From contig CAYXZI010000004.1 of NCBI GenBank assembly GCA_964470105.1, positions 5,271 through 69,270 on the forward strand: 64,000 nucleotides of DNA, read 5' to 3'. The position numbers and the translations under genes were made by a program. Below, in pieces: positions 27,930 to 56,925 of the stretch (within the stretch, counting starts at the first letter, position 1; each line of letters opens with the position of its first letter). The DNA is from an uncultured Candidatus Saccharibacteria bacterium (lineage in GTDB: Bacteria > Patescibacteriota > Minisyncoccia > Phycocordibacterales > PALSA-1337). Under the pieces are notes generated by a model. It saw nothing but the letters and a program-made list of their open reading frames with translations, was not told the origin of the DNA and ran no database searches.

Positions 27930-28135
27930 AAATTTGCTAGTTTTCGGAGAATGAAAAAACCCCTCCGAATTCATTAATAATAAATTCGCAGGGGCGATTT
28001 CATCGCGGTGCCACCCTGTTTTTAACTCATTATCTGCTAGCGAGCAGTGCGTGGGATTCTACTTACCTTGCGGCTTTCTTTCCCTATCTCACCGGTGTCA
28101 GCCGGGTCGTAGATGGGTAAAGTATGACATTAATA
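27930..28135 (-). promoter_or_regulatory. Asp T-box leader upstream of aspS
   Basis: In minus-strand sense it reads AAACAGGGUGGCACCGCGAUGAAAUCG, the conserved T-box sequence; UGGC implies a discriminator G as in tRNA-Asp. It is followed directly by terminator CCCCUGCGAAUU...AAUUCGGAGGGG UUUUUU. GAC triplets occur in the upstream stem region as specifier candidates. Confidence 0.7.
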
Positions 28136-28150
28136 GAAGAAAAAGCAATT

Positions 28151-28179
28151 GTTGACGACAAATAAGTTTCGTGATATAA
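28151..28179 (+). promoter_or_regulatory. Promoter: TTGACG, 17-nt spacer, TATAAA
   Basis: About 11 nt upstream of ATG 28191, giving a very short leader. Confidence 0.4.
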
Positions 28180-28190
28180 AGAAATCTGAT

Positions 28191-28652
28191 ATGAAGACCA
28201 CATACTCTAGAAACGGTCGTCCGCTACCGCGAACAATCAAGGTGTTCAACGAGGATGAGTTCAAGAGACTGGGCGTCGAAGAACTCATTCGTGCCTTGAA
28301 GGCCGATAAGTTCCTTCGCTCGATGGTACAACGGGTTCAGTCTCGGCTCTCTGCTACAAAGCGAGAATATGCCACCTGGATCTTTAAACCCCACTTCCTC
28401 CCTTTTCGTACCGTCGGTACGACTACATATTTGGGTGTGAGAGGAAATGTGTGCGACACAATTCTGACAGCACAACTTTGGATCTACAGACCATCAAAGA
28501 AGGGTGACCCATTCCTTGATGGTAGGGTGACATTTAGTTACCCCCACACCATCTTCCTGTCACATCTCAACGGTGGGTGGAATGTTTCTCTTGGCGATGA
28601 TTCCCCAATGTCTCTCGCTTCGTTGGTCGAGCACATAGAGCAGCTTCGCTAG
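28191..28652 (+). CDS. Hypothetical protein encoded by a GC-rich gene
   Basis: 153 aa at about 50% GC in a 33% GC background. The first 11 nt ATGAAGACCAC are shared with the gene at 38158. Own terminator at 28680-28710. Confidence 0.45.
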   Translation: MKTTYSRNGRPLPRTIKVFNEDEFKRLGVEELIRALKADKFLRSMVQRVQSRLSATKREYATWIFKPHFLPFRTVGTTTYLGVRGNVCDTILTAQLWIYRPSKKGDPFLDGRVTFSYPHTIFLSHLNGGWNVSLGDDSPMSLASLVEHIEQLR

Positions 28653-28679
28653 AAATAGCTGCTCAACCAAACAAAAACA

Positions 28680-28710
28680 GTCCCCGAAATACTCGGGGAC
28701 TTGTTCTTTT
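28680..28710 (+). terminator. Intrinsic terminator
   Basis: Stem GTCCCCGA / TCGGGGAC followed by TTGTTCTTTT. Confidence 0.6.
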
Positions 28711-28815
28711 ATATAACCCCAATCGCTTTCTTAACCTCCAGCATCTTTGCATTTGCAACCTCATTTGCCTTTCGTGATCCTTTTTCTAGTATTTTTCTTA
28801 CTGAATCTAAATCTT
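28711..28815. repeat. Non-coding, about 92%-identical copy of the trpS 3' end; direct repeat partner of 29273-29377
   Basis: Aligns base by base with the segment encoding the TrpS C-terminus (about 8 mismatches over about 105 nt). Similarity ends where the dCTP-deaminase-like gene terminates. Confidence 0.7.
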
Positions 28816-29265
28816 TTTTAATTTACCAAAAACTCCACAAACTATTTTGGTGCCAACATGTAATCTGACAGTCATAGATCCATTGTTTGATATTTCTAGG
28901 GCAAGTTGATTATCAGTGTTCGGTTCACAGAAAAAAGAGCTTTGAGTTACATTTAATCCCATCTGTGCAATAGTCGGTCTTGTACTTAATATACATGTAA
29001 ATTTATTATTTAAGCTTACTTTTTCCTTAGTATAAAAAATAGCAAATGAACCGGGTTTTAATTCAAATCCATCGTTTCCAATTGTATACTCTTCGAATTC
29101 AGGATCTTCTCGTGAATCTATAAATTCCTTAGCTTTAAGAATTCTGTACTTTGAGCCTAGAGTTAATGTATAACTTGCACCCTTAAGGTAACCTGCATCA
29201 AATGGTTCAATTATGATTTCCTTATTTTTTACTAACTGTTCTATATCCTTACCAGATAAAAACAT
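28807..29265 (-). CDS. dCTP deaminase/dUTPase-superfamily protein
   Basis: 152 aa. GKDIEQLVKNKEIIIEPF and GASYTLTLG resemble the dCTP deaminase family. Flanked by the trpS 3'-end repeats. Confidence 0.55.
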   Translation of the reverse strand: MFLSGKDIEQLVKNKEIIIEPFDAGYLKGASYTLTLGSKYRILKAKEFIDSREDPEFEEYTIGNDGFELKPGSFAIFYTKEKVSLNNKFTCILSTRPTIAQMGLNVTQSSFFCEPNTDNQLALEISNNGSMTVRLHVGTKIVCGVFGKLKKI

Positions 29266-29270
29266 AAAAT

Positions 29271-30221
29271 TTATATAACCCCAATCGCTTTCTTGACCTC
29301 CAGCATCTTTGCATTTGCTACCTCATTTACTTTTCGTGATCCTTTTTCTAATATTTTTCGTACTAAATCTAAATCCTTTGCTAGTTCTGTACGCTTATCA
29401 CGTAATGGTTTGATGAATGCATCTAAATCATCGATTAATGCTTCTTTTAGAATTTTATATTTTCCTTTATTCGCATCATAAAGTGTCTTCAACTCTGCTT
29501 CTGTTCGGAAAAGTTTGTGAATATTGTATACATTAGTTGGTACATCTCCACTTGAATCTGTGACGATACTCATCACCGCCTTTGTAATCTCCTCTCGTGT
29601 AGAGAAAAGCGGAATTGTGTTGTTATAGCTCTTAGACATTTTTTGTCCATCGATTCCCGGAATTATTGCAGAATCTTTAAGAATTACTTCTTCAGGAAGT
29701 TTGAAAGTCTCTCCAAAAGTATTGTTAAACTTTTGAGCTATATCACGTGCGTATTCGATATGCTGTTTCTGGTCCTGTCCTACTGGAACTAGATCTGTGT
29801 TGTAAAGTAGAATATCAGCCGCCATTAATACAGGATAGTTGAATGTTCCAACACTAATCTCCTTGTTCTTAGCTTCTGCATCTTTAAAGGCATGTGCACG
29901 CATCAAGAAAGGCATTGATGTAATAGAATCAAAGATCCAAGTTAGTTCTGTGTGAGCTGGAACATCACTTTGCTTAAAAATATTGGAAATATTTGGATCA
30001 ATACCAATAGCTAAATAGTCCAAAGCTAGGTCTAAAGTATGTTCCCGCATTGTCTTTGCATCTTGGATGCTGTTGAGGGCGTGATAGTCAGCAATCATAA
30101 AAAATTTGTGAGCGTCCTTGTGCTCATTTTGTAGATCTACCATTTGCTTCATAGCACCAAAATAGTTACCGATATGTGGTCGGCCTGTTGGTTTAACTCC
30201 TGAAAGTAATATTTTTGACAT
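29271..30221 (-). CDS. trpS: Tryptophanyl-tRNA synthetase
   Basis: KILLSGVKPTGRPHIGNYFGA (HIGH motif) and KMSKSYNNTI (KMSKS motif). Start taken at MSKILLSG. Confidence 0.9.
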   Translation of the reverse strand: MSKILLSGVKPTGRPHIGNYFGAMKQMVDLQNEHKDAHKFFMIADYHALNSIQDAKTMREHTLDLALDYLAIGIDPNISNIFKQSDVPAHTELTWIFDSITSMPFLMRAHAFKDAEAKNKEISVGTFNYPVLMAADILLYNTDLVPVGQDQKQHIEYARDIAQKFNNTFGETFKLPEEVILKDSAIIPGIDGQKMSKSYNNTIPLFSTREEITKAVMSIVTDSSGDVPTNVYNIHKLFRTEAELKTLYDANKGKYKILKEALIDDLDAFIKPLRDKRTELAKDLDLVRKILEKGSRKVNEVANAKMLEVKKAIGVI

Positions 30222-35529: not shown

Positions 35530-36387
35530 CTATATTCCCTCCTTTTTTAATTCTTCAACCAATTTCTGTGCTGATTTTGACAACTTCTTAGGCATATCTA
35601 CTTTTGTAACAATAAGTAAATCCCCTCTTCTACCTCGAGCATCCGGTACACCCTTCTGGCGTACCCTCAATATTTCATTATGTGTCGTACCCGCTGGAAC
35701 CTTTAGCTCTATCTTCCCATCTAATGTCTCGATATCTAGAGTAGCTCCAAGAAGTGCAGTGGTGAGTTTCAAATCTAATTCCATTATCAAGTTATTTCCT
35801 TCTTTTCTAAAAACATCGTGATCTGTAACCCAAACTCTAACAATTAAGTCTCCTTTTCCTCCTGGACCATCTTCTCCTTTACCTGAAACTCTCAATCCTT
35901 GTCCATTTTCAATTCCAGATGGAATCTTTACCTCTATTTTTTCTTTGTCCACAATGATATCTTTTGCAACACCGAATACTGATTCCTTGAATGAAATTTG
36001 AATATCTATATTTATAGTTGCTCCCTTTCTAGGTCTTCTACCTCCTCCTCCAAAGAATTCTCCGAATATATCTCCTAGATCAAATTCAAATGCTTGTCCA
36101 TTCTGACTTTGATATTGTCTTGCGAACTGAGAGAAATCGAAACCGGCACCACCGAATCCTTGTGATCCTGTAAATCCACTAGGTCCGTCTGAACCGAAGG
36201 TATCATATTGCTGACGTTTTTGATCATCAGACAAGGTTGTATATGCTTCATTTATCTCTTTAAACTTAGCATCATTACCCTGATTCTTATCAGGATGGTG
36301 CTCATGAGCAAGCTTACGAAAAGCTTTCTTTATATCGTCTTTTGAGGCGTTTTTATCAACACCTAGGATTTTGTAGTAGTCTTTCAT
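35530..36387 (-). CDS. dnaJ: DnaJ/CbpA-type J-domain co-chaperone without Zn finger
   Basis: J domain DYYKILGV...HPD, G/F-rich linker, and DnaJ C-terminal domains. No CxxCxGxG repeats. Confidence 0.75.
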   Translation of the reverse strand: MKDYYKILGVDKNASKDDIKKAFRKLAHEHHPDKNQGNDAKFKEINEAYTTLSDDQKRQQYDTFGSDGPSGFTGSQGFGGAGFDFSQFARQYQSQNGQAFEFDLGDIFGEFFGGGGRRPRKGATINIDIQISFKESVFGVAKDIIVDKEKIEVKIPSGIENGQGLRVSGKGEDGPGGKGDLIVRVWVTDHDVFRKEGNNLIMELDLKLTTALLGATLDIETLDGKIELKVPAGTTHNEILRVRQKGVPDARGRRGDLLIVTKVDMPKKLSKSAQKLVEELKKEGI

Positions 36388-36429
36388 TACTTTTACATAT
36401 TAACAGAAATGTGTTGTTTAATGGGATTG

Positions 36430-36458
36430 ACTATACGGTGTATCTGTGATATGTTATG
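36430..36458 (+). promoter_or_regulatory. Promoter: TTGACT, 17-nt spacer, TATGTT
   Basis: Upstream of a 5' region containing TTTAGAGAAAGC and CGGATGCT, which are also present before the gene at 38158. Confidence 0.35.
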
Positions 36459-36488
36459 TTTTAGAGAAAGCACCGAGTATGCGCTCGG

Positions 36489-36842
36489 ATGCTAGATAAC
36501 CAACTCATAATGGGATCAAAAATGATCAAAGAAACTGAAACTCAACGCCAGAAACGAGAGGAGAAGGAAGCCATGGGAAAGGAGAGGATACTCAGGCATG
36601 CCAAATCCCTTATTGATGGAATCGAGAGCGGAAAGATGCCCAGGGTAGTGGTTGCTGGGGCGATCCACCAAATACTTGCGGGTGCCGCACTGTATTGCCC
36701 TGATCAGATGATTCTTGTTCACGGGCACAACAAGAAGGAATCAGAGGTGCCAGACCCAGAACTGATCACTCGGACTGCGAAGTGGCTCTCAAAGGCAGAT
36801 GCGGAGATAGAGAGAGCAAGAGAAGAAGGCAATGGATCATAA
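36489..36842 (+). CDS. Hypothetical protein (GC-rich gene); the start codon is uncertain
   Basis: 117 aa ORF at about 50% GC with no recognised domain. Followed by the 46-nt terminator repeat. Confidence 0.4.
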   Translation: MLDNQLIMGSKMIKETETQRQKREEKEAMGKERILRHAKSLIDGIESGKMPRVVVAGAIHQILAGAALYCPDQMILVHGHNKKESEVPDPELITRTAKWLSKADAEIERAREEGNGS

Positions 36843-36844
36843 CC

Positions 36845-36886
36845 GAAAGCCGGCCTCCCCAGTGGACGCCGGCTTCGCTTTTTATA
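36845..36886 (+). terminator. Terminator, repeat copy 1: GAAAGCCGGCCTCCCCAGTGGACGCCGGCTTCGCTTTTT
   Basis: Stem AAGCCGGC / GCCGGCTT followed by a T-run. About 46 nt identical except 1 nt to the element at 38779-38827. Confidence 0.65.
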
Positions 36887-36891
36887 TTTAA

Positions 36892-37893
36892 CTAGACTAA
36901 TAGATTAGTTGTAAGTGCTACCATCAGTTCCTTATCCTTAGGATCACTTTCAGCAATCAACAGTGCTAAAGCTACTAGTGTATTATCATTTATTTTTCTT
37001 TCACCATTTGCTCGTATATCAATTCTATTAAGTCTCAAGAAGAAAACAAAACAGAATGAAGCTATACGCTTATTACCATCTGAGAATGGATGGTCCTTTA
37101 TGATGAAGTACAGTAGATGAGCTGCTTTTTCATCGAGACTTGAATATAGCTCCTTTCCATCAAAAGTTTGATATATGGTTTTAAGTATACCCCGGAAACT
37201 TCCATCACGTTCTATACCGAAGAGATCTGATGCTTCCTTTTTATCTATTAATACAGTCTTTAAGACTTCAATTGAACTATGAATGAATTCATAATCAAAT
37301 TTCTTTTTTTCAATATCCTTACTTTTCCTTAACTTTAGCTCACCTTCATCATATTCCTTAAGAAATTTCCATGAATTAGCATAGTCATGTATTACAGACA
37401 ACAAGCTATTACTCTCGCCTTGGCTTAACTCTCTTTCTCTAACAGTGCGCTGAATGAAGGAAATCTTTTCTTCTAGATCCTTAAGTATTCTATCTGGGAG
37501 ATTACTAACTCTTTCATTGTTAATAACAATACCTTTAATTAGATACTCTCGAAGTGTTGTAGTGGCCCACTGTCTGAATTTAATTGCCTTTGAAGAATTA
37601 GTACGATATCCGACTGCCAGGATGATGTCTAGTGAATATAAGGTAACTGGCTTATATGAATTAGTATTATGCATATTTTGCATATTGCTTTTTTCATCCA
37701 CCTCACCATCACTGAGTGTATTCTTTATGTGTCTAGACACAACCGACTGATCAATTTCGAACAATTCAGCAATCTGAGCCTGTGTTGCCCAAATTGTTTC
37801 CTTATCTGTGTCAGCTCTCAATTCTACTGTCCCATTAGCACTTGTATATATTACAAGCCTACCATCATCATTTTTAATGATATTTGTGTTCAT
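36892..37893 (-). CDS. RhuM-family N-terminal domain fused to a Fic/DOC domain
   Basis: N-terminal LVIYTSANGTVEL...TIWATQAQIAELF is RhuM-like. The C-terminal HPFSDGNKRIASF matches the Fic motif HPFx(D/E)GN(G/K)R. Confidence 0.7.
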   Translation of the reverse strand: MNTNIIKNDDGRLVIYTSANGTVELRADTDKETIWATQAQIAELFEIDQSVVSRHIKNTLSDGEVDEKSNMQNMHNTNSYKPVTLYSLDIILAVGYRTNSSKAIKFRQWATTTLREYLIKGIVINNERVSNLPDRILKDLEEKISFIQRTVRERELSQGESNSLLSVIHDYANSWKFLKEYDEGELKLRKSKDIEKKKFDYEFIHSSIEVLKTVLIDKKEASDLFGIERDGSFRGILKTIYQTFDGKELYSSLDEKAAHLLYFIIKDHPFSDGNKRIASFCFVFFLRLNRIDIRANGERKINDNTLVALALLIAESDPKDKELMVALTTNLLV

Positions 37894-38157
37894 ATTTAGT
37901 TTGTTAGTTAATAATCTAATAAAAAAATGTCATTCTGACTTAATATGTTTGATTCAAAATAAAAATCTCTATTTCTCCTCTCTCCTAAGAAAATATCGAG
38001 CGAGCCTTGTGGGCATTAGTGGGTATATTATACCAAATATGTGTGGGTAATCTGAACTTTACTTTATATAATAAGTGTGTTACTAATAGTCAATATGAAC
38101 ACGAGCGGATGCTCGAAAGTTCTTTGGAAAACTCAACTTTTTGTTTAGAGAAAGCTT

Positions 38158-38748
38158 ATGAAGACCACCCCTACTTTAGAGCGAGTTGTCGATGCAATAC
38201 AGGAGACAGTTATCAAGGAATTGCTCACGGTATGGAGAATCAACCGTGAGATTACGACCGAGAAACTCTCGGCAATGACCTATCGGCAATTGAGGTCCCA
38301 GCTCGGCCCCAAATCAATCCATCGTTTGTATCTCGAGTGTTGGAGTACAATTTCCCCCGACATGGCCTGGATGAAGGATCATGAAAGGAAGCGAGAAAAA
38401 AGATTGTCTCCGATCGAAGTGACTGGCTACTCTATCACATATCAGGAAGTCAGGTGGGCTGAAATTGAAGCAAGTGTCAAAAAGATACAAGTACTCGCCA
38501 CCCCATCAATCAAACTCCTTCTCAAGAAGTTTCGAAAAAAAGGAGAAACTCAGCAAGGTGAATGGGCGTGTGAAAGAGCAGATGATGTATTTCCTAGCAA
38601 ACTTCCTGAAGATCAGCGTCTGCACCCCCTATTTCTGATCAATCAGAGGCTGCAATTCGATGGAGTTCACTTTAGGTTTAAGTTCATGCCTTACAGAAGT
38701 GGACCTGCCAGTACTGATCTGGTCGAAATTGTCGCCAGGAACAGATAG
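38158..38748 (+). CDS. Hypothetical protein (GC-rich gene)
   Basis: 196 aa. Starts with ATGAAGACCAC, as does the gene at 28191. Upstream TTTAGAGAAAGC and CGGATGCT motifs. Followed by terminator repeat copy 2. Confidence 0.45.
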   Translation: MKTTPTLERVVDAIQETVIKELLTVWRINREITTEKLSAMTYRQLRSQLGPKSIHRLYLECWSTISPDMAWMKDHERKREKRLSPIEVTGYSITYQEVRWAEIEASVKKIQVLATPSIKLLLKKFRKKGETQQGEWACERADDVFPSKLPEDQRLHPLFLINQRLQFDGVHFRFKFMPYRSGPASTDLVEIVARNR

Positions 38749-38778
38749 TCCACATCTCTACGACTTACCTGGAACACG

Positions 38779-38817
38779 AAAGCCGGCCTCCCAAGTGGAC
38801 GCCGGCTTCGCTTTTTA
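38779..38817 (+). terminator. Terminator, repeat copy 2
   Basis: Same sequence as 36845-36886 except CCCCAG becomes CCCAAG. Convergent with the dnaK stop codon. Confidence 0.65.
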
Positions 38818-38841
38818 TATTCAATTTTACTTTCTTTTAAT

Positions 38842-40722
38842 TTACTTCTTCTCCTTAAACTCTGCATCCTTTACATCTCCCTCTGGACCCTTGTTCTCTC
38901 CAGTTGGTGGTGTCTGTGCTTGAGCTTTGGATAGTATTTCTCCAATCTTTGATAGCTCAGATGATAGTGCATCAGAAGTTGTCTTTAGTCTTGCAGAATC
39001 TGTTCCATCTTTTGCACTCTTAACATCTGCAATCTTGTCCTCAATGCTCTTTCTAAGATCAGCTGGAACCTTGTCTCCTGCATCCTTAAGAGATTTCTCT
39101 GAAGTATGGATCAATTGCTCTGCCATATTCTTGGCTTCAATCATATCCTTCTTCTTTGCATCTTCAGCAGCATTTACTTCTGCATCATGTTTCATCTTTT
39201 CTACTTCTTCTTTTGAAAGACCTGAACTAGCAGTTATTTTTATACTGTTTGCCTTTCCTGTAGCTTTGTCTTTTGCAGTAACTGAAAGGATACCGTTTGC
39301 ATCTAGATCAAAAGTAACTTCAACTTGTGGCATACCACGTGGAGCTGGAGCTATACCATCTAGAATAAATCTTCCTAATGATTTGTTATCAGCTGATAGC
39401 GGTCTTTCACCTTGAGTAATGTGAATTTCTACAGATGTTTGGTTATCTGCTGCTGTAGAGAAGATTTGAGACTTCTGGGTAGGGATAGTTGTATTCTTTT
39501 CAATGAGTTTTGTAGCTACTCCACCCATTGTCTCTATAGCTAGAGAGAGTGGTGTAACGTCTAGGAGAAGCACTCCCTTAACATCACCGGCTAGTATACC
39601 TCCTTGAATAGCAGCACCTACCGCAACCACCTCGTCAGGATTCACACCTAAGTGTAGCTCCTTACCGAAGAAATCTTTCACAGCTTTTTGCATAGCTGGC
39701 ATACGTGTCTGACCTCCCACCAAGATTACTTCATTAATATCTGCAATCTTAAATGGTGAAGCACTCATAGCACGCTTCGTAATCTCCATTGCTCGATCAA
39801 TGAATTCACGTGTAAGCTCTTCAAGCTTTGCTCGTGTCATAGTTACAAGCAAATGCTTTGGACCATCAGCACCAGATGTTAGGAAAGGAATATTTACTTC
39901 TGTCTGCATAGCTGTTGAAAGTTCTATCTTTGCCTTTTCAGCTGCTTCATCTAATCTCTGTAGAGCTAGAGCATCTTTTCTTACATCAATTCCCTCTTGC
40001 TTCTTGAATTCTTCAGCAAGCCAGTTGATGATCTTCTGATCAATATCCTTACCTCCTAGGTGAGCATCTCCATCAGTTGATTTTACTTCTACAACATCAT
40101 CTCCCACTTCTAGAACTGATATATCAAAAGTTCCTCCACCGAAGTCGAAGACTACGATCTTTTCATCTTTCTTTTTGTCGAAGCCATATGCTAGAGCTGC
40201 AGCTGTTGGTTCGTTTATAATTCGTTTTACATCGAGTCCTGCAATCTTTCCTGCATCCTTTGTTGCTTGTCTCTGTGCATCGTTGAAGTATGCAGGAACG
40301 GTAATAACTGCTTCAGTAACTGGTGAACCTAGACGAGCTTCTGCATCTGCTTTCATTTTTCCTAGAATCATAGCTGATATCTCCTCTGGTCTGTACCATT
40401 TATCACCCATCTTTACTTCAATTCCTCCTGTTGCACTTTTCTGCATTTCAAAAGGAACAGATGCGCGATCCTTTTGTACTGCTGGATCATCAAAGTTGTG
40501 GCCGATAAATCTTTTAATTTGATATATTGTATTTTTTGGATTTGTTACTCCTTGGCGCTTTGCTAGAAGTCCTACCATGCGCTCGCCAGTTTTTGACATA
40601 GCAATGATGGAAGGAGTTGTACGTGCACCTTCTGCGTTTTCTAATATTTTAGGGGTACCAGCTTCCATCACAGCGACGGCTGAGTTGGTGGTACCGAGAT
40701 CGATTCCGATTATTTTGGACAT
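38842..40722 (-). CDS. dnaK: Chaperone DnaK (Hsp70)
   Basis: [18 protein letters not shown] and [10 protein letters not shown] motifs; 626 aa. Confidence 0.95.
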
Positions 40723-42219: not shown

Positions 42220-42240
42220 ATAAAATAGTATACGTTAGAA

Positions 42241-42299
42241 TTTTAGATTTGCAAATATTTTAAGTTACATGGTATTGTCATATTGGTAACTGCAACCAT
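42241..42299 (+). repeat. 60-nt promoter/leader repeat, copy 1 (TTGCAA-18-TATTGT)
   Basis: Identical to 42783-42841 across about 59 nt. The palindromic TTGCAA at 42248-42253 also serves as the -35 of the divergent grpE promoter. Confidence 0.6.
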
Positions 42300-42344
42300 G
42301 AAATGCAGAAATTATAGGTGCTTAGCACCAGAAAGTATAGTTCC

Positions 42345-42710
42345 ATGAGAAAAATAACTATTGAGTCTGTTCCAGGTGGTATATCTGAGGCAGGCCTATT
42401 CACCGCAGTTGCAGATGCTGTCCACACACTAGGCAAGAGTGCGGACATTATAGTGTTTGTCGGGGTTTATGGTACGAATGATCCGGATGGCGATCGTACT
42501 GGTCTGCACTACAAGTTAAGGCTTGAGATAAAGGAACCAGCAGCCGGTATCTACTACGCACAGAAGGTTTCAGATGAGTTCAAGCTAAGTGGGGACCAAA
42601 CGACCGCTACCCTAACAATGGCGATTGTCGAGAAGGTAAGGGAGTTCATCAGCAATAAGGCTGCTTACCACTCGCGCCTTGCATCAGCATACGAGTCCTT
42701 ACGACAGTGA
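42345..42710 (+). CDS. Hypothetical protein (GC-rich); paralog of the 42839 gene
   Basis: About 121 aa from MRKITIESV. The ORF track gives a GTG start at 42318. It is preceded by a 16-codon uORF (MKCRNYRCLAPESIVP) whose stop overlaps the ATG. Terminator at 42735-42766. Confidence 0.45.
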   Translation: MRKITIESVPGGISEAGLFTAVADAVHTLGKSADIIVFVGVYGTNDPDGDRTGLHYKLRLEIKEPAAGIYYAQKVSDEFKLSGDQTTATLTMAIVEKVREFISNKAAYHSRLASAYESLRQ

Positions 42711-42782
42711 GGACGATATCATTTCTACATTGCAAAGCGGCAAGGTTTTCCCTTGTCGCTTTTTAATTAGCTCTTAAACCAT

Positions 42783-42841
42783 TTTAGATTTGCAAATATT
42801 TTAAGTTACATGGTATTGTCATATTGGTAACTGCAACCATG
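42783..42841 (+). repeat. 60-nt promoter/leader repeat, copy 2
   Basis: Perfect copy of 42241-42299. Here the ATG at the end of the repeat reads straight into the ORF. Confidence 0.6.
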
Positions 42842-43231
42842 GCACCTAAAACCGTGCCTCAAAGAGAAAGTGTTTGTATGGCAGAGATAACGATAAGGAA
42901 AAGTTTGGAATTCGATGATGAGATTTCTCAAAAGATTTGTGTGGATATAATTGACGCCCTTTCATACTTTGGGAATGAACGCCTTGTCATTGATCAGATT
43001 GATCTTTGGCCTAGGATTGTGGGAGATGAATGTGTCCTATCGGTCACCATTACCCACCGAGCTTCAGGGAGAGTAGAGCAATCTACTTTTGAACTCAACA
43101 ACAATTGGAGTCCACACTCGATCGCATTAGCAATCAAAACACACACAGGTATACCCCTTATGTCAGAGGTACCTGTTACCGAAAGGTTAGTATCGACACT
43201 TGGATCAATTCCAATTACACCGATTGGATGA
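42839..43231 (+). CDS. Hypothetical protein (GC-rich); paralog of the 42345 gene
   Basis: MAPK...MAEITIRKSL... The N-terminal region weakly matches the P1 N-terminus (ITI ... DAV/DAL ... FG). Terminator at 43249-43278. Confidence 0.45.
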   Translation: MAPKTVPQRESVCMAEITIRKSLEFDDEISQKICVDIIDALSYFGNERLVIDQIDLWPRIVGDECVLSVTITHRASGRVEQSTFELNNNWSPHSIALAIKTHTGIPLMSEVPVTERLVSTLGSIPITPIG

Positions 43232-43276
43232 TTGGTCCACAAACAAAAGCGCCTGGGTAAACCCCAGGCAACTTTT

Positions 43277-56355: not shown

Positions 56356-56402
56356 ATATATCGGATTTGAGCAATGGAGCTCATTTCAAACCTAGAATTG
56401 AA

Positions 56403-56867
56403 ATGTACTTAACCGTATCAACGATCTTCGTCATCTCAACCACCGCGATGATCATCACGAGCATCTACCTCGCCATCAAGGCCAGGAGGTGGAGTCTGTT
56501 GGTGACGGTCGTGTTCTGTGCAATCATCATCCCGTTTAGCTTTTACAAAATGGCAAAACGGGTAATGCACTCGGACTCCACAGTCCCAACTATAACATCA
56601 GTGACAAACGGACTCTACCAAGTCCTTGGCACATACGAGGATGCCGGTGGATACCTCAGCATAGTCCACCGTAGGCAAATCCAATCCGTCATTGTTGAGA
56701 AGAAGTTGGTTGAAACAATACCAGCTGATCCGCTTCCGACATTGATGAGAACGGAATTCCCTGTCACGTCCGGCACGAATGTTCTGGACAACTACCTCAT
56801 CGAGGTAGGCACTGACAAGAGCGCACCATTCGTGCGCGACTACACGCCATTCAAGTATTTCAAATAG
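56403..56867 (+). CDS. Hypothetical protein with two N-terminal TM helices (GC-rich gene)
   Basis: 154 aa from MYLTVS; the ORF track gives a TTG start at 56367. About 50% GC. Tandem hairpin terminator at 56880-56930. Confidence 0.45.
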   Translation: MYLTVSTIFVISTTAMIITSIYLAIKARRWSLLVTVVFCAIIIPFSFYKMAKRVMHSDSTVPTITSVTNGLYQVLGTYEDAGGYLSIVHRRQIQSVIVEKKLVETIPADPLPTLMRTEFPVTSGTNVLDNYLIEVGTDKSAPFVRDYTPFKYFK

Positions 56868-56925
56868 GGACCCTCGTGGTCCCCCCAACACAAACCAGCC
56901 CGCCCCATAAAGGCGGGCAAGTTTT

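Follow-up and report, generated by a model that had tools for sequence, protein, structure and literature searches.

Exchangeable orphan-gene units between dnaJ and dnaK in a Patescibacteria genome: a locus-bound hot spot probably shaped by homologous recombination

A variable region between dnaJ and dnaK

Three genes separate dnaJ from dnaK in the genome of an uncultured Candidatus Saccharibacteria bacterium (GTDB lineage Patescibacteriota; Minisyncoccia; Phycocordibacterales; PALSA-1337), and two of them are small orphan units that give way to other genes in related genomes. We analyzed 64,000 nt of this genome (positions 5,271 to 69,270 of contig CAYXZI010000004.1, assembly GCA_964470105.1), an AT-rich stretch (∼36% GC) that we refer to as the window. 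Unit A and unit B, both on the plus strand, are oriented against the dnaK-dnaJ operon and stand one on either side of a minus-strand gene of the RhuM/Fic-Doc family (36892 to 37893). The open reading frame (ORF) of unit A spans 36489 to 36842 and encodes 117 amino acids (aa) from its first ATG, or possibly 106 from the ATG at 36522, while that of unit B spans 38158 to 38748 and encodes 196 aa. We consider it probable that homologous recombination shuffles moron-like expression cassettes in this region, making it a hot spot comparable to the minimal mobile elements (MMEs) of Neisseria. The hot spot is real but bound to this locus, with no sign of integron-like machinery.

Slot contents differ between related genomes

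Relatives were collected through protein searches with RhuM and look-ups of the closest homologs, and about ten Paceibacteria loci were compared; a metagenome scan with RhuM returned distant relatives only. The two positions that flank RhuM, the dnaJ-side slot (slot 1) and the dnaK-side slot (slot 2), hold from zero to five genes, mostly opposite-strand orphans, and about 20 unrelated ORF families occur across the loci. Where the window has A in slot 1 and B in slot 2, its closest relative, L005, has an ortholog of B in slot 1 and an 86-aa ORF (family C) in slot 2, and L169 has family D, a further B-family gene and a PRA-PH gene in slot 1 and again C in slot 2. Slot 2 is empty in L007, L006, and L170, whose first slots contain, respectively, an A-like 146-aa ORF with a member of family E, one 69-aa ORF, and two orphan ORFs. 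L166 has two genes in slot 1 and five in slot 2, including a PemK pair; L173 has a PRA-PH gene and one orphan ORF in slot 1 and two orphan ORFs in slot 2; and both slots are empty in L167 and L168. RhuM directly adjoins dnaJ in L009 and L012 and is missing from L171, in which the order is dnaJ, E, B, a membrane protein gene, and dnaK. An earlier interpretation of the window from its letters and ORF list (the sequence-only reading) had proposed a family of mobile or recombining gene cassettes and had named variability between strains as its own test. Each related genome examined has other slot contents, which bears this out. Within the source population no polymorphism was found, four further contigs (L001 to L004) being 100% identical over the locus.

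Families B, C, D, and E, the membrane protein, and PRA-PH recur across genomes and in different slots. Family D occupies slot 1 in L169 and slot 2 in L166, and B is found on the dnaK side in the window and on the dnaJ side in L005. Alignments of the window with L005 distinguish three components, namely, a promoter region that belongs to the slot, a leader and a 3′ untranslated region (UTR) that belong to B, and a terminator that is common to all. The segment shared by the two positions of B runs from about the transcription start (ATGAACAC...) through TTTTTATATTC, at the end of the terminator.

Divergence estimates set the cassettes apart from their neighbors. Between the window and L005, dnaJ has a synonymous divergence (dS) of 0.93 and a ratio of nonsynonymous to synonymous divergence (dN/dS) of 0.026, RhuM has a dS of 0.80 and a dN/dS of 0.037, and B has a dS of 0.72 and a dN/dS of 0.24. 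The ORF of B is 78% identical to that of its L005 ortholog, with ∼50% of synonymous sites differing, and its 3′ UTR plus terminator (38749 to 38821, plus strand) is about 91% identical, so that the flanks, better conserved than the ORF between them, are under strong constraint. Because of this dN/dS value and an in-frame 4-codon indel between the orthologs, we regard B as a real, resident, fast-evolving protein gene. For C, compared between L005 and L169, dS is 0.10 (dN/dS, 0.10), versus 0.82 (dN/dS, 0.067) for the neighboring RhuM gene, an 8-fold deficit in synonymous divergence. The block of 97 to 100% identity shared by these two genomes is ∼420 bp long and spans C and the promoter-like region in front of it. 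We read this low-divergence block as a likely product of recent exchange between lineages.

One terminator behind unrelated ORFs

The sequence-only reading had called attention to a nearly identical terminator behind two unrelated ORFs of 117 and 196 aa, an observation that holds in both parts. Both ORFs exist, and no similarity between A and B was found by BLASTP (E value of 3.7) or by hhalign of the B family against A and its L007 relative. The window contains exactly two copies of the 45-nt element, at 36844 to 36888 (plus strand, 3 nt from the RhuM stop codon) and at 38777 to 38821 (plus strand, 20 nt from the dnaK stop codon); the copies are identical at 44 of 45 positions, with 0 matches expected from shuffles, and their similarity reaches 55 nt at 91%. 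Both copies consist of a two-tier hairpin and a U-run and fold strongly (−20 to −22 kcal/mol, with z-scores of −3.8 to −4.5) ahead of GCUUUUUAUAUU. The hairpin and U-run begin 1 to 28 nt past the stop codons of the cassettes, the arrangement of an intrinsic terminator, and terminator activity is predicted on this basis.

This element belongs to a wider family, as 14 cassette ends from 8 genomes, representing ten unrelated ORF families, align as a single terminator with the consensus AARCCGGC / yCCC..GGGA / GCCGGYTT, followed by a U-run. The outer stem is paired in 97% of cells and has compensatory changes at 3 of its 8 pairs. Two G-U wobbles in the stem fall on the sense strand of the cassette, as expected of a hairpin formed by the RNA of the cassette, and we propose that the terminator acts as an RNA element on that strand and is much more constrained than the ORFs. 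A covariance model built for the family, R1, matched only the two known copies in the window (57.8 bits for copy 1 and 55.9 bits for copy 2), the next-best match being another element at 14.5 bits. Across 213 kb of related loci, R1 matches with E values of 1e-13 to 1e-5 lay at cassette 3′ ends in the dnaK/dnaJ region, among them two new terminators in L171, and a single match departed from this pattern, a symmetric hairpin near the contig end of L008. The 64 kb of source genome covered contain 2 copies, and the significant copies in the related loci are at this locus except for the L008 hairpin; in the sequence covered, the many dispersed copies of repetitive extragenic palindromes (REP), bacterial interspersed mosaic elements (BIME), or miniature inverted-repeat transposable elements (MITE) have no counterpart. 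The earlier proposal of mobile or recombining cassettes is upheld for modular units with conserved noncoding flanks and swapped ORFs, for the change of slot by B, and for the discordant divergence of C, and not for a genome-wide or autonomously mobile family, of which the R1 scan gave no sign.

Wider searches added little. A strict terminator pattern had 0 matches in 185,579 species genomes, a pattern that is probably too strict since the L005 copy itself would fail it. In viral contigs a generic GC-stem pattern gave 31 matches, only one of which scored with the model, and weakly (33 bits), and a second pattern gave 0. Rfam, run in gathering mode on the window and in E-value mode on the locus and the whole window, contained no family for leader, terminator, or ORFs. 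We note separately that the short motif GAACACGA stands immediately before both the leader hairpin (38097 to 38104) and the terminator hairpin (38772 to 38779) of unit B; it has 5 copies in the window versus 0.8 expected, and ACAC(C)GA tends to stand before the terminator in related cassettes.

A structured leader and a predicted resident promoter

The leader of unit B (38092 to 38157, plus strand) comprises the hairpin CGAGC-GGAT-GCTCG (38102 to 38115), AGTTCTTT (38118 to 38125), and the 12-mer TTTAGAGAAAGC (38144 to 38155). It is 95% identical (54 of 57 positions) to the leader of the L005 ortholog and represents a family defined by a hairpin of 4 to 6 bp followed 0 to 3 nt later by AGTTCTTY, an element that is otherwise rare. 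This combination is found upstream of B in four genomes, of C in two, of D in two, and of one further ORF. The stems vary (CGAGC, AGGC, CTGGCA, GGAC, and CGAG) yet all of them pair, and even among B orthologs CGAGC, AGGC, and CTGGCA are found. The family was delimited by a scan for a hairpin plus AGTTCTT, the variable hairpins being out of register in a MAFFT alignment. In unit A, the hairpin CCGAG-TATGCG-CTCGG (36473 to 36488, plus strand) closely resembles the cassette C leader CCGAGCATGTACTCG and can be regarded as a degenerate member of the family that has no AGTTCTTY tail. We suggest that the leader acts as an RNA element in which pairing is kept over sequence and that it, too, is more constrained than the ORFs. 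Two known element types were considered for the leader and rejected by inspection: a controlling inverted repeat of chaperone expression (CIRCE), whose arms and spacing are unlike those seen here, and an RNA thermometer, as the hairpin does not cover the start region.

The 5′ motifs to which the sequence-only reading had pointed fared less well than the terminator. Palindromes are indeed present at 36473 to 36488 and 38102 to 38115, and TTTAGAGAAAGC occurs exactly twice in the window, once in the unit B leader and once at 36460 to 36471 (plus strand), between the −10 element and the unit A hairpin; the chance of a common 12-mer between the two upstream regions is low (p of about 0.003 to 0.004). 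The order is reversed, however, with the 12-mer preceding the hairpin in unit A and the hairpin coming first in unit B, where the 12-mer abuts the ATG, and this opposite order means that there is no collinear common 5′ segment. Nor is TTTAGAGAAAGC kept in the L005 ortholog of B, which has TTTAGAAATTAC. The second motif, CGGATGCT, can be put down to chance: the window contains 4 copies, and a common 8-mer is expected in 50 to 60% of such region pairs. Likewise, the 11-nt gene start ATGAAGACCAC, said to be shared with a GC-rich gene at 28191, is confined in the window to 28191 and 38158 but is not conserved, being replaced by ATGAAGACTAC in the ortholog; the two leaders are otherwise unrelated, and the proteins had no mutual match in an all-against-all BLASTP comparison. 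What is conserved at the 5′ ends is instead the hairpin with AGTTCTTY.

Upstream of the leaders, each unit has its own promoter-like site. P1, the predicted slot 1 promoter (36427 to 36455, plus strand), was matched by a promoter scan and has TTGACT, a 17-nt spacer, and TATGTT with an upstream TG. The pattern TATTGAC-N17-TGnTAT is kept in 8 genomes, one of which has an empty slot; its conservation ends right after the −10 element, and seven different ORFs follow it. Judged from this pattern, P1 is a resident feature beside dnaJ and not part of the swapped unit. The corresponding region of slot 2, P2 (38058 to 38087, plus strand; TTTACT, a 17-nt spacer, and TG-n-TACTAA), was read from the sequence and would also function as a promoter. 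P2 is conserved before cassette C in L005 and L169 and precedes the B-family gene in L171. The empty slot of L167 (3630 to 3750 of that locus, between RhuM and dnaJ) keeps P1 and only the 3′ half of the terminator (CCACTTGGGATGCCGGTCTTTT), a remnant which suggests that the empty state arose by cassette deletion and is not an ancestral unoccupied site.

Homologous recombination as the probable mechanism

We propose that units A and B are autonomous transcription units, in each of which a sigma-70-type promoter and an intrinsic terminator enclose a small orphan gene that evolves fast and is preceded by a short structured 5′ leader, and that homology would be offered by the conserved genes (dnaJ, RhuM, and dnaK), by the resident promoter, and by the common leader and terminator patches. 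Ordinary RecA-type recombination or gene conversion, acting within the locus and with DNA imported from related strains, could then duplicate, move, replace, and delete whole transcribed units. Patescibacteria carry competence and homologous-recombination genes (PMC12455944). A likely order of events begins with B and its own terminator in slot 1, as in L005 and L169; B would then have been copied to slot 2, displacing a C-type cassette, after which A would have replaced the B ORF in slot 1, leaving the B terminator behind. The near identity of the two terminators in the window would be explained in this way, the terminator of B having remained in slot 1 after B itself had been copied to slot 2.

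Several points weigh against this account. The sharing of one terminator by ten unrelated ORF families, and of one leader by at least four, exceeds what simple hot-spot turnover would produce; it requires either that ORFs were replaced repeatedly while the expression frame around them stayed or that a dedicated mechanism exists. At 40 to 60 bp, the common patches are close to the shortest that RecA recombines efficiently, and only three close genomes inform the order of events. The promoters, leaders, and terminators are themselves predictions from sequence. The comparison covered 64 kb of the source genome and 4 to 13 kb of each relative, which leaves room for copies elsewhere. Finally, B keeps a GC content at third codon positions (GC3) of ∼0.5 despite a dS of ∼0.7 in an AT-rich genome, which the account does not explain; GC-biased gene conversion at a recombination hot spot may lie behind the high GC3, but this is only a guess.

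Alternative explanations

Since the flanks are common to ten families and the moved unit equals the transcribed unit, a hairpin-directed mechanism is kept alive, though we think it unlikely. Leader and terminator hairpins would in that case be the sites of a dedicated recombination whose enzyme is encoded elsewhere in the genome, a part played by attC in integrons and by subterminal hairpins in IS200/IS605. The Paceibacteria would, on this doubtful reading, possess a cassette system in which orphan ORFs, bounded by a 5′ hairpin (with AGTTCTTY) and a two-tier 3′ hairpin, are plugged behind resident promoters in the dnaK operon, with the hairpins doubling as sites for an enzyme or for RNA- or single-stranded-DNA-based copying, independent of integron integrases. 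Both end structures are common to unrelated ORFs, the moved unit starts near the transcription start, a little ahead of the leader hairpin, and stops where the terminator hairpin ends, and the bulged A and internal loop in the terminator are reminiscent of folded attC sites; GAACACGA ahead of both B hairpins (38097 and 38772) and the empty site with half a terminator can be taken in the same sense. Against this, no integrase, transposase, or recombinase domain was found among the genes within ∼10 kb in the window or in the gene lists of ∼10 related loci, as the sequence-only reading had remarked for integrase and attC, and the shared GC stem AARCCGGC...GCCGGYTT is only ∼40 nt long, without the RYYYAAC...GTTRRRY core of attC. 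In addition, the end hairpins are unlike each other (R1 does not match the leader), leader covariation and the sense-strand wobbles point to RNA function, the copies are confined to one locus within the sequence covered (the L008 hairpin apart), and each cassette has its own promoter. For want of an integrase and an attC core, and given these individual promoters, the analogy with integron cassettes that had been drawn earlier is abandoned. Were the hairpins recombination sites after all, they would constitute a new cassette mechanism.

A model without exchange, in which one ancestral gene was tandemly duplicated and the proteins diverged while leader and terminator were conserved, seems to us improbable. 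It would account for the homology of leaders and terminators across families and for the rapid evolution of the proteins, as B evolves ∼6 to 10 times faster than its neighbors (dN/dS of 0.24 versus 0.03), identity within the B family drops to 32% in comparisons in which RhuM retains 88%, and the similarity of A to an ORF in the corresponding slot of L007 is just detectable. It does not account for the different slots of B in the two closest genomes or for a C cassette with a dS of 0.10 next to a RhuM gene with a dS of 0.82. ORF lengths range from 69 to 200 aa, profile comparisons between families (B versus D and B versus A) found nothing, some slot genes encode unrelated domains (PemK, PRA-PH, and DUF2268), and empty sites exist.

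We give equally little credence to the small ORFs being partners of RhuM/Fic-Doc, for example, variable antitoxins, immunity proteins, or specificity factors. The ORFs lie on either side of a Doc-type, toxin-like gene with a match to a candidate defense family, other slots contain conflict genes (the PemK pair and the MazG-like PRA-PH), and the sequence-only reading had offered orphan toxin/immunity modules as an analogy. L167 and L168 nevertheless have RhuM between two empty slots, and B-, E-, and membrane-family cassettes stand between dnaJ and dnaK without RhuM in L171. The cassettes, moreover, are separate convergent or divergent transcription units and not operon partners, and they have no antitoxin or defense match. 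The toxin/immunity analogy is not borne out, there being no family match and no operon pairing with RhuM, and RhuM and the cassettes each occur without the other. That the cassette products are conflict-related accessory proteins of some kind is a weak guess, prompted by the presence of RhuM/Doc, a PemK toxin-antitoxin pair, and MazG-like genes among their neighbors.

It is very hard to believe that the GC-rich segments are structured noncoding RNAs with accidental ORFs. In favor of this view, GC-rich islands in AT-rich genomes often are RNA genes, the noncoding flanks are better conserved than the ORFs, and the proteins belong to no known family. Against it, B has a dN/dS of 0.24 at a dS of 0.72 with an in-frame 4-codon indel, its family has conserved residues, AlphaFold2 (AF2) is confident for much of it, Rfam has no match, and an ORF of 196 codons is unexpected by chance at 46% GC.

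Comparison with known systems

The locus matches the definition of the MMEs of Neisseria (Saunders & Snyder 2002, Snyder et al. 2007) that is quoted in PMC3082526. Conserved flanking genes (dnaJ, RhuM, and dnaK in about ten genomes) enclose strain-specific whole-gene cassettes, no mobility genes appear in any locus list, and the organisms have genes for DNA uptake and recombination; exchange would proceed by homologous recombination, and one cassette has a divergence out of keeping with that of the flank beside it. In contrast to MMEs, unrelated cassettes here also have a common leader and terminator, a resident promoter is predicted to drive the dnaJ-adjacent unit, and one cassette changed slots within the locus, which goes beyond flanking-gene homology alone.

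The units also recall phage morons, described by Hendrix and colleagues as promoter-gene-terminator units of deviant composition inserted between phage genes. They share with morons a predicted promoter, one small ORF, an intrinsic terminator, a deviant GC3 (about 0.5 versus about 0.25), and insertion between functional genes without disturbing them. They differ in lying within the core chromosome, among ribosomal protein genes, rpoA, grpE, dnaK, dnaJ, and tRNA synthetase genes, and not in a prophage, and in having no PHROG match and no relatives in viral contigs.

Integrons offer a partial parallel: a fixed promoter platform, exchangeable single-ORF units, an imperfect hairpin end with a bulged base, and several units arrayed in one orientation. 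There is, however, no IntI and no attI here, the ∼40-nt hairpin, which is without R/L core sites, behaves like a terminator in RNA, and arrays reach at most 3 cassettes in tandem; as most cassettes have their own promoter, P1 is a partial analogy only. In gathering fast-turnover accessory, toxin-antitoxin, and candidate defense genes at a few intergenic sites between core genes, the region resembles hot spots and defense islands, but it is very small, lies inside a chaperone operon, and holds mainly lineage-restricted orphans with common regulatory flanks.

How the Patescibacteria, with their tiny, streamlined genomes, gain and test new genes is poorly known. The locus suggests a concrete route, in which a delimited site in an essential chaperone operon, with a fixed promoter and a reusable leader and terminator, has orphans swapped in and out between close relatives. 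It is a tractable site for studying the origin and turnover of orphan genes and recombination in an uncultivated phylum, and it opens to study two conserved RNA elements that are apparently more constrained than the proteins they flank.

Cassette proteins and conserved neighbors

The proteins of cassettes A, B, C, D, and E had no Pfam, PHROG, or PADLOC match. The sole database match of unit A is itself, and its weak similarity to the 146-aa ORF in the same slot of L007 amounts to 30% identity (E value of 8e-4); a single-sequence AF2 model with three helices (predicted local distance difference test score [pLDDT] of 65) is too weak for a fold search. The closest homolog of B is P0002 of L005, at 70% identity, and a search of 1.84 billion proteins yielded 4 credible representatives of the B family plus one spurious repeat protein. 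Conserved residues are kept in five credible B-family sequences (three full-length and one a shorter fragment). The AF2 model of B is moderately confident (pLDDT of 77) and has no fold match in the PDB, and no B homolog was found in viral contigs. GC3 is 0.51 in A and 0.49 in B (about 0.5 in the cassettes generally) versus 0.20 to 0.30 in host genes.

The left conserved flank of the variable region is dnaJ (35530 to 36387, minus strand), a 285-aa ORF whose identical gene in L001 and L002 carries DnaJ and DnaJ_C Pfam tags and whose product is 96% identical to that of the L005 ortholog. The right conserved flank is dnaK (38842 to 40722, minus strand), a 626-aa ORF with HSP70 sequence and with HSP70 Pfam tags on its orthologs. 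The core genes around the locus on the minus strand are rpsI, rplM, rplQ, rpoA, rpsD, grpE, dnaK, dnaJ, a membrane-fusion protein gene, a resistance-nodulation-division (RND) pump gene, and two tRNA synthetase genes, and within ∼10 kb on either side we find dnaJ, the membrane-fusion protein, RND pump, and tRNA synthetase genes, a dCTP-deaminase-like gene, dnaK, grpE, ribosomal protein genes, and rpoA.

The RhuM/Fic-Doc gene, the semiconserved center of the region, has Pfam domains Virulence_RhuM and Fic and the motif HPFSDGNKR, and PADLOC assigns it to the candidate defense family PDC-S23 (E value of 5e-113). Its position between dnaK and dnaJ is kept across many Paceibacteria (L006 to L009, L012, L166 to L170, and L173) at 60 to 94% identity, and it stays in place even where both flanking slots are empty. 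The Hsp70 protein BiP is a target of modification by eukaryotic FICD. By analogy, the placement of RhuM inside an Hsp70 operon could indicate a chaperone-related role rather than that of a toxin.

Other cassette-like places in the window

A perfect 61-nt direct repeat (42240 to 42300 and 42781 to 42841, plus strand), comprising a promoter-like site, an inverted repeat, and the start of a leader, precedes two unrelated GC-rich plus-strand ORFs (42348 to 42710 and 42878 to 43231), each with a terminator, in the region upstream of grpE (42240 to 43260). The two ORFs do not align to each other, and these units mirror the arrangement between dnaJ and dnaK in having the same 5′ ends and different ORFs.

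A further GC-rich orphan unit (28150 to 28705, plus strand; ORF 28191 to 28652) has its own promoter-like site and terminator and a GC3 of 0.55, and it is missing from L005. Together with a T-box-like leader match (27987 to 28119, minus strand) that scores 35 bits, under the Rfam cutoff of 93, it stands between a deaminase gene and a class II synthetase gene. These two genes are ∼34 nt apart in L005, which marks a segment of ∼800 nt (27987 to 28705) as strain specific. Close by is a 110-nt direct repeat of 93% identity (28708 to 28817 and 29270 to 29379): a class I (Trp/Tyr-type) tRNA synthetase gene has a second copy of its 3′ end immediately downstream of the dCTP-deaminase-like gene (28807 to 29265). 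In L006 the two synthetase genes are adjacent without the deaminase, so that the deaminase gene looks inserted and bracketed by a duplicated flank. Direct repeats around inserted genes thus recur in this genome and are the expected residue of recombination-based insertion or duplication. A GC-rich island at 56367 to 56891 (∼48% GC), for which no convincing Pfam or Rfam match was found, contains overlapping ORFs of 166 aa (plus strand; GC3, 0.62) and 97 aa (minus strand).

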